Of a DNA stretch of 64,000 nucleotides, positions 1,804 to 49,624 are shown piece by piece. The DNA is taken from NCBI GenBank assembly GCA_037379345.1, contig CM074517.1, positions 18,352,001 to 18,416,000 on the forward strand, read 5' to 3'. Source of the DNA: Perna viridis. Lineage: Eukaryota. A program made the position numbers and the translations under genes. Positions within the stretch are counted from its first letter, which is position 1; each line of letters opens with the position of its first letter. The notes under the pieces are model-generated. The model worked only from the letters and a program-made list of their open reading frames with translations, did not search any database and was not told where the DNA came from.

Positions 1804-4800
1804 TCAATCAACCACAGGTATGCCTTGTGTAAATTGTCTCCAGTTTGTTCCACCTTTACTTGCACTTTCCTCTGAAAGCTTAGTTTTTCTCCTAAATGCA
1901 CGGCCGCCATATGAGGGTTTAGTTGTTGGAGGTGGTAATGGCCCTACCCTACCTCCTGTGTACTTCAATGATTTTCTGTCTATTAAAACAGTCTTCACAT
2001 CTTCATGAACCTATGAAAAACAAATGAGAAACAGTCACTAAAAGATGTGGATGAAAATTTATTTCAGTACATGTGACATTGCATATTCTAACCTCGCATC
2101 AATTTCTTAACTCTCATTAAAGCAAATGTTATAAAAGCTTTATATTTAATTTTAAAAAAAAATGATTTTCAGTAATCTGTACTTGTTGACAGATATTTCT
2201 CTAACTCTCTAACATGGCAAGATATTTAAAAATAGTTAAGATATTGAGAGTAATTGTGACATCATCAGATCTTTATAGTTTTAAATGAAAATGATGAACT
2301 CACACTGCTAGATTTTTTGCATCACCAAAACTATATGTACATTAAAATACTTAAAATTGCAATAACTCAATTACCTATAAACATAACAATAGTTTCTTTT
2401 CATTTTGATATTGTCAGTATTAAAACAAAAAGTAACTTCATCATTCTATATTTATTTTTGAATGTTTTATAGAAAAACATAGTATGTTTCTGACCTCAGG
2501 GTATCAGACATATTTAGAACAACGTTTCATTTCTCCATAATGATGTTCACCTTAACAAGGATAACTGAAATAATGTAAAACCTTTCATAAGCAAGACAAC
2601 ACAGATGTATACCTTCTTCTTCTCAACTGCCAACTTTATATTGAATTCCTTTTCCTCCATACATGCTTTCAAGTCTGGGACACATCTTCCTGATTGGTAC
2701 ATTCTCTCCTCCACATTAGAGATGTCAGTATCATCTTGACTCCATTCTGACTTGGCAGAGCCAGTCATCAAACCTGGATCTTTGGTATGTTCATCTAATT
2801 CACCAATGCCAGAGCTGAAATACAATAAGTTCAGTCATATCAACAGAATTCTAGATAGTACTGGGTAAAAGAAAAAGGTGATATGAGCACTATATTCCCC
2901 ATTTCTAAACAATCGATATACCAGGGGTAGTAGGCTTTGTAAGTCTGCTTATTCCTTTCCGGAATTTCTGATGTAGAATGTATTGAAATACAAAGACTGA
3001 CCTTCATTTTATTGTTTAATTTGGGGATCGGGAAACACTGCACTACAATGCAAAGTCTTCTGATTTTTTATGTTTTTTTTTTTTATTTTAAACATTTTTA
3101 TCAATGTAGAACTAGATATTTGTCTTTTTTTATCAGTATTTTTACATAAAAAGATTTTTTGCTTTTAATATCAAACCCAATGCTGTTTTAATGACAAATG
3201 TCTATGCACTTGAATGTTAGATGAGGACCCATTCCCATGAAACCACATAGTCACCTAATGAGAATTGCATACCCTGCAGGAATTCTTTATTCACCTCTTA
3301 AATAACTATGTAATATTTGAGCGTTTTTGAAACCACCTGACAATAGTGTCCACTTTAGGTACCAGTGCTAATACTTACTTTACCATAGTTACTATCTCAG
3401 GTACCAGTTTAAAATGATACAGGATCGCCCTGAGAGTGAGCTTGGATTGGTACAGATAAATATCTGATAATAGTCTCTGTTTTTGGTACTAGTGTAGGTG
3501 GATACAGAATTCCCCTGAGAATGAGCGCGGACTGGTACAGATAAATACCTGATAATAGTTTCTGTTTTTGGTACTAGTGTAGGTGGATACAGGATTGCCC
3601 TGAGAGCAAGTTTGGATTGATCAGCTGCCCTGCTGTTGATCACATCTCCAACTGATTTCCCTGGGAACAATCTGGACAAGATTGATAGGACCTCATCATT
3701 GGTTGGGTCTAGTAACAGTCCCATGATTAAATCTTGTCTAGCACCTTGTACATTCTAAAGACAGAGAACACCATAATTAAAAAAAACCTATTTGGGAGAA
3801 ATTAAATGATATTGTAGTATAATAATGTAAACACTTCTACTTTTCTTTATGTAGAATATATGAACATAAACCTGAGAACATCAGAAAGAAAAGTCATTGT
3901 GTTAATAATACTAATGTACATGTATCTCCCTATATCTTTGTTTGGTTTGTCAACATTAATATTTCACAATCATGTAATAAACAGCAAGATACGGCAGTTT
4001 TTCAAGAATACATAAATTTCACACAAAAAAATAACCATTAAAATCTCTCAGAGTGAGTTTTCATATCTGTATGGACAGGCACTTTGTACACCATTACATT
4101 AAAAATTGTAAAGCAAAGAGAGACAATTTACCTCCATCATATATCTAGTTCTGGACCTGGCAACATAATAACTACCCATTTTAGGGTTATACTGTATGGC
4201 AAGTGTAAATTTAGATTCTGCTTCCTACAAAAAAAAATGAATGCATTATCAGAATCAAATCGAAATAAAACGAAAGTAAATTGCCCATGGATTTTCCTTC
4301 AATGCCCTTTTAAGTCAGGCCATATCCCTTGATTTTTTTTAATAACCTATACAAAGCCCATTAAAAGGGCTCAAATACTCTTTAATTTTTCCCTTTTCAT
4401 GAGTGTATTCATACACAAAATGGCCCTGAGATGTACCAAGATGTCCTACCTTGATGTATAGTATATTTGATATATTCTGATACTTATCTAGTGACTCTAA
4501 TACATATACTGAACTGTAAACATGTTGATGTGTAACTGGAGTCATATTAATTTTTTTAAAGTAATTAAACTTACAGGGTAATTTTTGTCTTGGTATGCCA
4601 CAGTTGCATATTCATTATAAATGACAGAGACTCTAGTTTTGACATTATTGTCATTAGCATCAAGATCCAGAGCTTGGTGATAGTCCTGAAGAGCAAAATT
4701 ATAATCACCTTGGCGGAAGAAACAATCTGTAAAAAAAAATAATAGACTTATCAATTATTTTTCTCGCACATTTAATTTTTTTCTTTTTCTGCACTCACAA

Positions 4801-44290: not shown

Positions 44291-44938
44291 TTTGACTGAA
44301 TACTCGGATATCAATAGGATCAACGATATAACACGATATTTTATAGTAGCCGTACCTTATAAGTTATTGAAATTCATGTCTAGTTTATGTTTCATAAAGC
44401 AGTATCTGTACAACCTGTCACAACGCTTGATATGTTTTTTTTTTTTTTTTTGAATATTTCTTCGATTCTATTCATTTGTTATATGTAATACTCATTTGAT
44501 ATGCGAAACCTGCTATAATACATGATATAATATGATATGATATTTGTAATTATACCCATAATAACCAATTGCAATTTAAACTCAAGAGCCCACGCCTGTG
44601 TTTCACGAATTAGACATTGTCTTCCCTTAATTTCCTGAACACCATAATCTTGACTGTTTTAATCGTACAATTCGACATTTTATACGACAAACCTGTTACG
44701 AAAAAAAACTATTTGATATGTATCATAACACCCTTTTTTCGGTACCTCAGTTTGTCTAATTAAAATGACGATACGGTTTAAAATTTCTACAATATACAAT
44801 ATCATAAATATATTTTGATCGAAAGAAATCTATTAGCAAATACTATAGATAAGTGCTGCATGGATTATCATAACGTGAATGTTGTCCTTAGAAATCAACT
44901 GACGATTAATATCTTGACTTGTGTACATCATGTACATT

Positions 44939-45173: not shown

Positions 45174-45692
45174 AAAGCTATATCTATTCAATATTTTATA
45201 TTCAGACTTAAACGTATTGCAATGTAAGGAGGGGAGGGATTGACATTCAGGAGTAATAGCGTATACACTAGACTGAGGGTTTAAAATTTAAATTAAAAAA
45301 ATTGATTCCAAAAATATTTTCTTCATATCTAAATACCCAGTCTATGGTACCCTCGTAACGTGTATCAGAAAAATGATAATGAACTTTACATGCATTTGTG
45401 TCTCCTAGTGAACTCCAACAAACTAACAAACAATTGATTTTAAGACTCGAGATGTATCTCAATAAAAGAAATTGTGTGACTGTGTGAAAAGCATACTTGA
45501 ATTAAAAAGTTTCGTCCTTTACTTGATGATAACTGTCACCACTTTGAAAGTTATTCAGATGCATGGACGGACACAGAAGTTTCAAGAAAATGGAAACCCA
45601 GACATTTAGGGTGCTCTTAGACTATAGTTTTTCATTTTTTCCACATTTTGCAAAGTATATAATAATACTTTCTATCAAAAGTGAGGATTGGT

Positions 45693-45767
45693 GGATGGAA
45701 CACCACTGAGGTGCATAACCGTAAATGAGGGTTGATGGATGGAACACCACTGAGGTGCATAACCGTT
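45693..45767. repeat. Short tandem duplication
   Basis: TGGATGGAACACCACTGAGGTGCATAACCGT occurs twice. Confidence 0.75.
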
Positions 45768-45940
45768 AATATATCTTGTTGATGTGAGCGTTATTATGTA
45801 ACTGGAGTTAACAACTTTCAAGCATCAATAAATCACCATGATATAGAAACTGTATAATTCACAACACAATGAGAAGTGTATAACTGATGATGTTGTCAAT
45901 GGTCTTAAAATGACCATTTAACCTTGACTATAATTATATC

Positions 45941-46190
45941 GTGTGTTGGTGGCTTAATAACCACAGGGTAGTGATATGCGTCTAATGCAGTAGTGATCGA
46001 ACGTCTCTAGATCGCTACTGACGCTGGCTAGTCTACGTGTAGACGAAAAGGGGAGCAGCGTAAGCAGAAGCCTTCCTCTGCCAGTACATAGCCTCTACAC
46101 TACCAAGACTCCTTCAATTTGCCTCCCCGAGGTAACACACGGTAACTTGGGTCTAGTACTCAAGGCTAACATGAAGGGGATCTTGGAGTA
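45941..46190 (+). ncRNA. HDV-like self-cleaving ribozyme at the RTE 5' end
   Basis: P1 GTGTGTT (45941-45947) / AACACAC (46134-46140). P3 GCC/GGT with L3 TCCCCGA (46121-46133). P1.1 GG (46141-46142). P4 CTTGGGT/ACTCAAG (46146-46164). J4/2 GCTAA with candidate catalytic C46166. P2 CCAAGACTCCTTCA (46103-46116) / TGAAGGGGATCTTGG (46172-46186). Confidence 0.82.
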
Positions 46191-46553
46191 ACAAGGACCC
46201 TAGAGGTGTAGAGTGCAGGCCCACCGGCGCATGGAACACGCCCTGGCTCTCACCAACCTTGCCCCAGCTATGGGTTAAATAGATCGCTGCCTTGTGATGG
46301 ACTGTTGAGTCAAAGGCTACGGGAGACAACCCAGACAGAAAACGATGGTCAGACTGGGATCAAACCTTTGAAAGGGAACCTGTCTAGGAGAGGAAACTCT
46401 GATGTAAAACCCGGCTAGAAAAGAGTCGTCACCCATTGTAGGGAACCTATCTAGGAGAGCTGACTCTGATACAAAAGCATGTGAGGGACTTGCTGACCAC
46501 CACATTAAAATAAAGCTGAAGCTAGAGGGCCAACCCCCCACTAGTGGATACAA

Positions 46554-49500
46554 ATGGTTACAGAAACGATTACAGTAAAAGTCATTCCTCGGACTCGTCA
46601 ACGACTAGAGAAAGAGGACCAAACCAAACATCGAGGACAGCAAATGACGCGAAAGCTGATGAAATTGTTCTCACCAAAACAACAAACAACCATAGGCACT
46701 TGGAATGTTAGAACAATGTATCAAAGTGGCAAAAGCTTGCAAATTGCGAACGAAATGGATAGATACAATATCGAAATTCTAGGACTCAGCGAAGTAAGAT
46801 GGAATACAGCTGGAATGGCAACACTATCTTCAGGTCATACGGTCATATTCTCAGGAAATCCAAATGAAGACGACATACATGACAAAGGCGTGGGATTCAT
46901 GCTTACAAAGAAAGCCAAGAAATCGTTTGGAGTGGAATCCAATATCTGCAAGAGTGATATCAGCTAGATTTGACACTCGATTCCAGAAAACAACATTTAT
47001 ACAGGTGTATGCACCAACAAACACCGCAGACGAAGATGATAAAAATGACTTCTACAACTTATTACAATCAGTTGTTGATGCCGTTCCTAAAAGAGACATC
47101 CTTATCATCTTAGGAGATCTGAATGCCAAAGTAGGTGATGACAGAGGAGGTAGAGAAAGGGAGATAGGACCACATGGAATAGGGCAAATGAATGAGAACG
47201 GAGAGATGTTTGCTGACTTTTGCGCTATAAACAGTCTAGTAATTGGCGGTACTTGGTTTCCACATAAATCTTGTCATAAAACCACCTGGATTTCACCATC
47301 TGGAGACACTGAAAACAAAATAGACCACATAACAATAAGCCGTCAATGGAGATCATTACAAGATGTACGAACAAAACGTGGAGCAGACGCAGCATCAGAT
47401 CACCACCTTGTAATTGGAAAAATTAAACTCAAGCTTTTAACAACAAAGAAAAGAGAGACTACAAAAAGGAAGTTTAATGTTGAGAAGTTTAAAGATCAGA
47501 AAGTGAACGAAAACTTCCAAATTACACTCAGGAACAGATTTAGTACTTTACTAGATCTTGACAACGAAGAAATGAACAATGATATTGATGACATCTGGAA
47601 CTCAAGAAAGACAGCCATTCTGGAAGCATGCGAAGAAACAGTTGGTTTCATTCAAGTGAAAAGAAAGAAATGGATGTCAGATCAAACATGGGATACAATA
47701 TCTGAAAGAAGGGAAATAAAAGAAAAGTTGATGAGTGCCAAAACCAGACAGCAAAAGAAAAACCTGCAAGACCTTTACAGCGCAAAAGACAGAGAAGTGA
47801 AGAAAAGCTGTAAAAGAGATAAAAGAAACCATGCTGAAAAGTTAGCAGTAGAAGCTGAAAAAGCCTGCTTAAAAGGAGACATCAAAACATTGTATAACAT
47901 CACAAGACAACTCAGTGGAAACATCTCTCAAAATGAAAATTTACCAGTCAAAGATAAAAACAACAATACCCTCACAAAGCTAGAAGATCAGCTTGACAGA
48001 TGGAAAGAACACTTTAGTGAGGTATTGAACAGACCACCACCAACAAATCCACCAATACTTGAAGAAGGTCCAACACTTAACATAGAGACTGACAAAATTA
48101 CCGAAAATGAAGTAAGAAAAGCCCTAAAACATCTTAAGAATGGGAAAGCAGCGGGAATCGATGGCATACCACCAGAAGCCCTCAAGTCCATGAATGACAC
48201 TACCATTCAATATCTTCTTGGGCTATTAAACCAGATATGGGAAAAAGAAAAAATTCCAAAAGACTGGCAAAAGGGACTCTTGGTAAAACTACCTAAAAAG
48301 GGGGACAAATCCAATTGCAACAACTGGAGAGGAATAACTCTTTTGTCTATTCCTAGTAAAATCCTATGCAGTATAATCTTACAAAGAATGAAAGAAGAGA
48401 TTGATAGCAAGCTGAGAGATGAACAAGCTGGATTTAGACAAGAACGATCATGTGTCGACCAGATTGCAACACTCAGAATAATTATTGAGCAAACGATCGA
48501 ATGGCAGTCATCCCTATATCTAAACTTTATTGACTTCCAGAAAGCATTTGACAGCATAGATCATCAGGTCTTGTGGAACATTCTAGGACACTATGGGATT
48601 CCTCCAAAGATTATTTCCATGATTAAGTTACTGTATGAAGAATTCTCTTGTCAGGTCATACATGCTGGTACATTGACGGATCCTTTCCCTGTAACAACTG
48701 GCGTAAGGCAAGGATGCATTCTCTCTCCCCTTCTCTTTCTCATAGTCATCGACTGGATAGCAACAACAGCTTACAACGACCCTCATGGTATACAATGGAC
48801 ACTAACATCTCGTCTAGAAGACCTCGAATTTGCAGACGACATATGCACACTATCGCATCGTCTTCAAGATTCCCAACACCAGGTCAACCATCTCGAAGAA
48901 ACAGCTAAAAGAACAATATATCAACACAGCCAAAACCAAAGCCATGAGAATCCAACAAAACCAGATGGATCCAATATTGGTAAATAACCAACAGATAGAG
49001 AATGTAGATAAATTTACGTACCTTGGAAGTGCCATGAGTACAACTGGAGGCACTGACGAAGATGTACAAGCCAGAAAGATGAAAGCATTACAGGCTTTTT
49101 CCATTCTAAAACCAGTATGGAAAAGTAGAACACTGAGAACGACTACTAAGATCAAAATTTTCAACAGCAATGTTAAGTCTGTCCTGTTATATGGTTGCGA
49201 GACCTGGAGAGAAACAGAAAACACCATGAAATCTATACAAGTCTTTGTTAACAAGTGCCTAAGAAATATACTAAATATCAGATGGCCAGAAAAAATAACA
49301 AACAAGAAACTGTGGCAAAGAACAAAACAACAACCAATAGAAAACACCATTCGAGCCCGAAAATGGAAATGGATTGGTCATACTTTAAGGAAGAACAATA
49401 AAAACACTACAAAGCAAGCTTTAGATTGGAATCCCCAAGGGCAAAGAAAAAGAGGAAGACCAAAGAACACCTGGAGGAGGGGTTTGAACTCTGAACTGAA

Positions 49501-49595
49501 GAGAGTAGGACTAACGTGGAAGAATTGTCCAAAACCGAAGCGAATGGAGAGAAACTGTAGTCGCCCTATGTCCACCCATGGACGAAATGGAATAA
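46554..49595 (+). pseudogene. RTE endonuclease/reverse-transcriptase ORF broken by three frameshifts
   Basis: APE motifs IGTWNVRT, ILGLSEVRW, QVYAPT, GDLNAKVG, SDHHLV. RT motifs DFQKAFDSI, GVRQGCILSPLLF, EFADDI, FTYLGS. Frame changes near 46920, 48912 and 49522; the last restores VQNRSEWRETVVALCP..*. Confidence 0.9.
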
Positions 49596-49624
49596 ATCAA
49601 ATCAAATCAAATCATAATTATATC

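Follow-up and report, generated by a model that had tools for sequence, protein, structure and literature searches.

A 3.7-kb endonuclease/reverse-transcriptase (RTE-type) element from Perna viridis opens with 246 bases that match a long-J1/2 HDV-like ribozyme fold, which likely cuts just before the first base of the element, G45941, and would trim longer transcripts to unit length. This reading, drawn from sequence, is held with good confidence for the family and with less for the single copy in the window (the whole stretch of 64,000 nucleotides analysed here). The predicted scissile position coincides with the element's 5′ end across five diverged families and many independent insertions, supporting the first-pass annotation, which had proposed an HDV-like fold whose cleavage position is the element's first base.

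Boundaries and coding capacity of the element

The first base of the element, G45941, was set by an 11-bp target-site duplication (TSD), ATAATTATATC, which is present on both sides, as the earlier reading of this DNA had held. Since the two TSD copies lie at 45930-45940 and, after a short TCAAA-type tail, at 49614-49624, the insertion spans 45941-49613. Its features, all on the plus strand, are the following:

45930..45940, plus strand: left TSD (ATAATTATATC), the longest repeat abutting the element, found again past the tail
45941..45947, plus strand: P1 5′ strand, GTGTGTT; G45941 is the predicted first base after cleavage
45948..46102, plus strand: long J1/2 (155 nt) with predicted helices (P1.2-like domain), three of them with two-sided changes across families
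46103..46120, plus strand: P2 5′ strand (46103-46116), then ATTT, which joins it imperfectly to P3
46121..46133, plus strand: P3, GCC (46121-46123) with GGT (46131-46133), closing L3 TCCCCGA (46124-46130)
46134..46142, plus strand: P1 3′ strand AACACAC (46134-46140) and P1.1 GG (46141-46142)
46146..46164, plus strand: P4 hairpin, 46146-46152 with 46158-46164; two-sided changes in 5 of 6 tested pairs
46165..46169, plus strand: J4/2 GCTAA, in which C46166 is the predicted catalytic base
46170..46186, plus strand: P2 3′ strand (pairing bases 46172-46186)
46187..46553, plus strand: remaining 5′ leader, with a predicted cross-family conserved stem at about 46201-46253, predicted on the same alignment
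46554..49595, plus strand: single endonuclease and reverse-transcriptase reading frame, broken at three places in the window copy
49593..49613, plus strand: short tandem tail (TAAATCAAATCAAATCAAATC)
49614..49624, plus strand: right TSD (ATAATTATATC), repeat of the left one

In the window copy, the endonuclease, reverse-transcriptase and DUF6451 matches were split over three frames, and RNA reads from other copies revealed indels near 46925, 48915 and 49528; it is a frameshifted and probably inactive member of its family. An unbroken frame of 1004-1040 aa was found in 6 of the 39 other copies compared, and the 1023-aa frame of copy L043 matched PF03372, PF00078 and PF20049 and combines an AP-type endonuclease with a reverse transcriptase, without ORF1. 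The single ORF, the lack of ORF1, the short tandem-repeat tail and the TSD are traits of the RTE clade. The nearest Atlas clusters to the element protein have the same build, and one of them is named Craniofacial development protein 2, a label that we take to be RTE-derived. The element fits the RTE clade, a placement based on anatomy and Atlas neighbours. The leader also holds two similar copies of GGGAACCT(G/A)TCTAGGAGA...ACTCTGAT, at 46386-46419 and 46443-46476, and related words occur in the leaders of another family described below (family C).

The element's first base opens a nested double pseudoknot

P1 consists of seven Watson-Crick pairs out of seven, within the 6-7 bp of HDV-like ribozymes, the first being G45941-C46140, and its strands lie 193 nt apart, confirming the perfect pairing with an AACACAC about 190 nt downstream that had been noticed initially. 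Within 2 kb upstream, no 7-nt stretch other than GTGTGTT at 45941 pairs perfectly with the P1 3′ strand. The remaining parts that had been named for the double pseudoknot (P3, L3, the P1.1 GG, P4, J4/2 and a J1/2 of about 155 nt) were all found where they had been placed. P3 is formed by three pairs (G.U, C-G and C-G), L3 UCCCCGA has the U-C-C/Y start of HDV-like ribozymes, and J4/2 follows the pattern of a catalytic C and then N-R-A (C46166-U-A-A), this C being present in 36 out of 36 aligned family copies. The J4/2 cytosine plays the catalytic role in HDV. This role is also described in the R2 literature (PMC3774820).

P2 was the part of the fold in which the initial description needed correction. 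The helix of about 14 bp does exist, since 46103-46116 and 46172-46186 form 14 pairs with one bulged A and one U.G, but the A46105-T46184 pair is private to the window copy, with C at that site in 35 out of 35 other aligned copies. Likewise, the end of P2 next to P3 is indeed imperfect, and is so in all 36 aligned copies, with a helix of 13-14 bp otherwise present; the opposed bases had been given as ATTT and ACA, whereas in the HDV register ATTT (46117-46120) faces CA (46170-46171) and the preceding A belongs to J4/2.

An HDV descriptor search had been proposed as a check. A purpose-written full descriptor, composed after the site was seen, matched the window at this single site and gave no match among 40 window and 300 leader shuffles, each shuffle being an approximate dinucleotide walk. 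In Rfam, the best match was drz-agam-2-2 (RF01788) with 18.7 bits and an E value of 0.044, under the gathering score of 38, and the element is not assigned to that Rfam family.

Copies of the family begin at the same base

The window family (family A) is a young jumping-gene family. Judged from the best 40 of 99 scored candidates, the genome carries at least 40 copies that are 96-99% identical across the 5′ end, and a pattern search yielded four further 5′-truncated family copies. Among the 39 copies other than that of the window, the alignment started at +1 in 25 and at +2 in seven, while +4, +6, +8, +21, +28, +52 and +71 occurred once each; the copy ranking prefers long 5′ ends, so these counts are not genome-wide proportions, although longer shared ends would still show. 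For the 32 copies with a start at +1 or +2, the adjoining 30 nt of upstream flank had a mean identity of 31% and a maximum of 53%, apart from the local duplicate pair L047/L053, and this pair was also the only exception to the absence of shared sequence upstream of G1 among the 39 copies. The 5′ ends of other copies thus cluster at G45941 with unrelated upstream flanks, as had been expected of a cleavage site, and none of the 39 extended further 5′ in shared sequence bar the local duplicates L047/L053.

The junctions themselves were then defined by TSDs. Within the 24 independent copies starting at +1, 19 had a TSD of at least 9 bp and five had no such TSD. The TSD ended exactly before G1 in 10 of these 19 copies and overlapped the element by 1-2 nt in three, and 1-8 extra bases, none ending in G, were carried at the junction by six. 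Junctions of this variable kind, with microhomology and added bases, are on record for R2 elements whose cleavage falls at the element's own 5′ end (PMC3774820), and an extra G, ascribed to the cap, was reported in two out of six full-length L1 insertions (PMC4038843). The lack of an extra G at the 19 family A junctions is therefore a weak hint of an uncapped template.

Other features of the insertions were also recorded. The base before G1 was T in 17 out of 24 family A copies (L032-L067) versus 37% T in the flanks (P ~0.0008), and the bases added at family A 5′ junctions were mostly T or TGTT-like. Some short copies consist of the element's two ends (L033, L058, L261, L267 and L271). Those of family A fuse bases 1-637 to 3614-3659 and 1-929 to 3229-3669, and two separate insertions of a second family, B, fuse 1-546/549 to 3552-3600; L130/L271 resembles a further decayed short copy. 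L061 (G000 C5:48571668) comprises element bases 1-629 only and has no 3′ tail, yet it is flanked by an 11-bp duplication; internal priming close to where the reading frame begins may have produced it.

Proposed processing and source of the precursor RNA

According to the mechanism that we favour, a transcript with upstream sequence would fold into the double pseudoknot, and C46166 would catalyse Mg2+-dependent scission before G1, as in other HDV-like ribozymes. The product would be a 5′-hydroxyl, uncapped, unit-length template RNA starting at G1, and reverse transcription would reach the end of this RNA and join the target via short microhomology or a few added bases. Because reverse transcription would run to the end of a trimmed RNA, each full-length copy would start at G1 and renew the ribozyme. 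The least supported step is the origin of the precursor, for which we lean towards transcription starting upstream of the element (host read-through). The first-pass annotation had gone further and proposed that read-through takes the place of a precise start site of the element's own, which is plausible. In a review, RTE and baggins elements with such ribozymes are described as lacking promoters of their own, their transcription coming from introns or from positions downstream of LTR elements (PMC6765202).

RNA evidence was taken from two raw sequencing runs, which gave 23 and 13 reads on 45600-46800; no place showed many read starts, and the reads were too few for a 5′-end test. With the read strand deduced from the neighbouring spliced gene, reads over the element body were mostly sense (5.5 versus 0.45 and 11.1 versus 1.66 at 47288-47951), and they carried alleles of other family copies. 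No sense host transcript into the window copy was seen in the two runs, the depth just upstream being at most 0.07. The neighbouring gene is a six-exon expressed C-type lectin gene (PF00059; 38367-44296, minus strand) that starts about 1.6 kb from the element and points away from it. A location of the window copy inside a host intron was checked and found no support, as the lectin transcript is on the opposite strand and its reads end at 44296, which places the element outside the gene and head to head with it. Read-through is unlikely to matter for the window copy, which is frameshifted, lies head to head with the lectin gene and has that low upstream depth.

A dual system as in L1Tc is possible, if doubtful: an internal promoter in the leader would make most of the RNA, and the ribozyme would trim upstream starts or host-derived leaders. 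The first 77 nt of L1Tc are both promoter and ribozyme (PMC3383444), and because that element carries the two, an internal promoter whose start lies at G1 or further upstream could also exist here. Insertion at unrelated sites together with mostly sense family RNA is what such a promoter would give, and a dual system agrees with all the structural evidence. Against it stand the review's statement on the lack of own promoters (PMC6765202) and, weakly as regards a capped start at G1, the count of extra G at TSD-defined junctions (0 out of 19 in family A and one possible case, L262, in family B), although neither the statement nor the count tests promoter activity.

Four other families keep the fold with different P1 sequences

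The first-pass annotation had suggested aligning genomic copies for covariation in P1, P2 and P4. Within family A this gave none, as its copies are too alike; the core varied in 0.5% of cells versus 0.9-1.4% in J1/2, a difference too weak to use. Two-sided changes did appear across diverged families. Four other families in the same genome keep the fold, and their protein segments are mostly 38-51% identical to those of the window family. They have different, compensated P1 pairs, and their insertions begin at their own P1 first base. These families were found by core sequence patterns, and each match was then checked for pairing, only the pairing ones being kept. Reversed-pattern controls matched as often or more (59 vs 48; 102 vs 35), so pattern counts were rejected as evidence. 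The pattern matches L116, L119, L123, L125 and L133 lacked P3 and were dropped.

Family B (L111-L136 and L254-L270) comprised 23 pattern matches and has an AGTA-repeat tail. It starts with GTGTGCT (GTGTACT in three) opposite AGCACAC in 17 out of 19 copies examined, four further matches having been excluded as 5′-truncated. Its TSD ends exactly before the P1 G in six copies and overlaps by one base in five. P2 is perfect up to P3 in this family, and in most copies the middle pair of P3 is C.A. Family C was represented by L101 (G000 C8:25236511), L108 (C5:43323077), L109 (C7:4907844) and L110 (C7:9388060). In C2 (L110) a 12-bp TSD ends exactly at the P1 G, and in C3 (L108), which has a U.U pair in P1, a 10-bp TSD ends three bases before it; L101 and L109 share sequence with L108/L110 from the same start position. 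The four family C ribozymes also have G.U as the first P1 pair, and their P2 5′ strand is separated from P3 by an extra short hairpin, CCC(C)-AGATAT-GGG(G), which is weaker in L110.

Over the five in-genome families, 33 out of 35 P1 pairs were formed. Watson-Crick pairs in P1 numbered 28, versus a mean of 21.6 when strands were swapped between families, and 28 was reached by one of 120 arrangements, the true one. A nine-row alignment was then built from the five in-genome families, one decayed locus and three metagenome loci. In it, 84.6% of cells were paired versus 75.4 ± 1.2 in shuffles (0 out of 500 as high), a test inflated by kinship among the rows. P1 was 96% paired, and two-sided changes were found in 4/6 pairs of P1, 5/6 of P4, 1/3 of P3 and 5/14 of P2; complementarity had guided the choice of 5′ ends for the metagenome loci, which also inflates the P1 counts. 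RNAalifold recovered P1, P3 and P4 unprompted and added helices in J1/2 and a stem just 3′ of P2. The P1.1 GG and its possible CC partners were invariant in nine out of nine rows, without covariation, and these bases had been used in the search patterns. GCTAA was also in the patterns, so its presence in the other families is by construction.

The metagenome search gave 117 pattern matches, most of them without P3. Five loci with RTE-like leaders were inspected (L185, L189, L203, L204 and L226), of which three were aligned and two had no 5′ end. Full or near-full P3 together with P2 pairing was seen in a further set (L151, L162, L169, L176, L188, L191, L193, L198, L206, L211, L217, L234, L237 and L245); many of these 14 have a short J1/2, and L211 sits upstream of an endonuclease-like frame.

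The comparison of the families also touched the leader and the limits of the core. In the five families a covarying stem is predicted right after P2, and a G/C-rich stretch precedes the V/I-T-E-T/A codons with which the long frame begins. Only the window family (46554-46568; compared with L256, L108, L109, L110 and L271) has an in-frame ATG immediately ahead of these codons. The core shows three departures among the families: the mispaired P2/P3 junction, the C.A in P3 and the hairpin inserted between P2 and P3. It is conceivable, but in our view unlikely, that the conserved leader of 600 nt, with the ribozyme as no more than its first domain, would first cut and then start translation without cap or AUG, on a core that tolerates three departures missed by standard descriptors.

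Features that weigh against activity

Some folding features point away from cleavage. Pseudoknot-free folding favoured an extended P3 hairpin without P1, although such energies cannot rank the active fold and serve only to flag competing pairings. When the window copy was folded with 60 nt of flank, bases -1 to -4 were predicted to pair with 46141-46144 (probability 0.54-0.71); this pairing would extend P1, so that the P1.1 GG would be lost to it. A possible flank extension of P1 by 4-6 bp was found in 6 out of 25 copies. J1/2 alone was no more stable than its shuffles (z -0.70), and the fast Agam-2-1 ribozyme is reported to owe its speed to stable J1/2 domains (PMC4908430). The C.A pair in P3 of family B and the U.U pair in P1 of C3 also count on this side, and P1 mismatches were linked to weak cleavage in R2 ribozymes (PMC3774820). 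In favour of activity, about one third of R2 ribozymes had mismatches within the first five P2 pairs (PMC3774820).

Taken further, the fold might be inherited without cutting, the 5′ end being set by a precise promoter or by a stop of the reverse transcriptase at P1 and the structure being kept for translation or protein binding. The family-wide imperfect P2/P3 junction, the L3 sequence (TCCCCGA in the window family versus TCCTCG.. in the other families), the predicted competing hairpin and the Rfam score below threshold all favour this explanation. We nevertheless regard it as quite improbable, since in five families that differ in P1 sequence the boundary follows P1's first base, C46166 is kept in all 36 aligned copies, and mismatches comparable to those of the window family occur in R2 ribozymes (PMC3774820). 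A chance fold with a coincidental boundary match is hardly credible, as the unselective core patterns and the many metagenome matches without P3 are outweighed by the full descriptor, with 0 matches in 340 shuffles, and by the compensatory P1 and P4 changes across families, which contradict it.

Relation to known systems

The closest structural relative is drz-Agam-2 of Anopheles gambiae (RF01788; Webb et al. 2016, PMC4908430), which, like the window element, has a long structured J1/2, the same core order and an extended P2 (12 bp versus 13-14 in the window element), and drz-agam-2-2 and the window element have GGUAAC and GGCUAA in common. The window element differs in its 18.7 bits under the threshold of 38, its L3 UCCCCGA and a P2 mispaired next to P3, and its activity is predicted here. 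For RTE retrotransposons, 5′-terminal HDV-like ribozymes have been published (Ruminski et al. 2011, as cited in PMC6765202, PMC5786205 and PMC7761336). As far as those accounts describe them, they resemble the window family in lying at the very 5′ end of a dispersed element whose single ORF encodes endonuclease and reverse transcriptase, with conserved sequence downstream, unrelated flanks upstream and bipartite short derivatives. No mollusc or bivalve case of such an RTE ribozyme was found by title or abstract, although the supplements of Ruminski 2011 and Webb 2009 might include one, and no literature pairing 'drz-Agam-2' with 'RTE' was found.

R2 (Eickbush et al. 2013, PMC3774820) and the window family have in common cleavage at their own 5′ end (predicted here), variable junctions, microhomology and added bases. 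However, R2 inserts site-specifically into 28S rDNA, where an upstream promoter is guaranteed, whereas the window element is dispersed and has an AP-type endonuclease. The L1Tc/ingi ribozyme (Pr77-L1TcRz, PMC3383444) is likewise dispersed and cleaves just before +1, the position predicted in the window element; L1TcRz is 77 nt long and overlaps a proven internal promoter, whereas in the window element an internal promoter is conjectural.

Altogether, the candidate ribozyme is well supported as a structure and as a boundary, and its catalysis is predicted. As the principle has already been published for R2, RTE and L1Tc, the gain is a well-documented example and no new mechanism: a clean genomic case of a dispersed LINE family whose 5′ end lies at a predicted ribozyme cleavage site. 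The five natural variants in one genome could show to what extent the HDV fold puts up with changes close to its active site.
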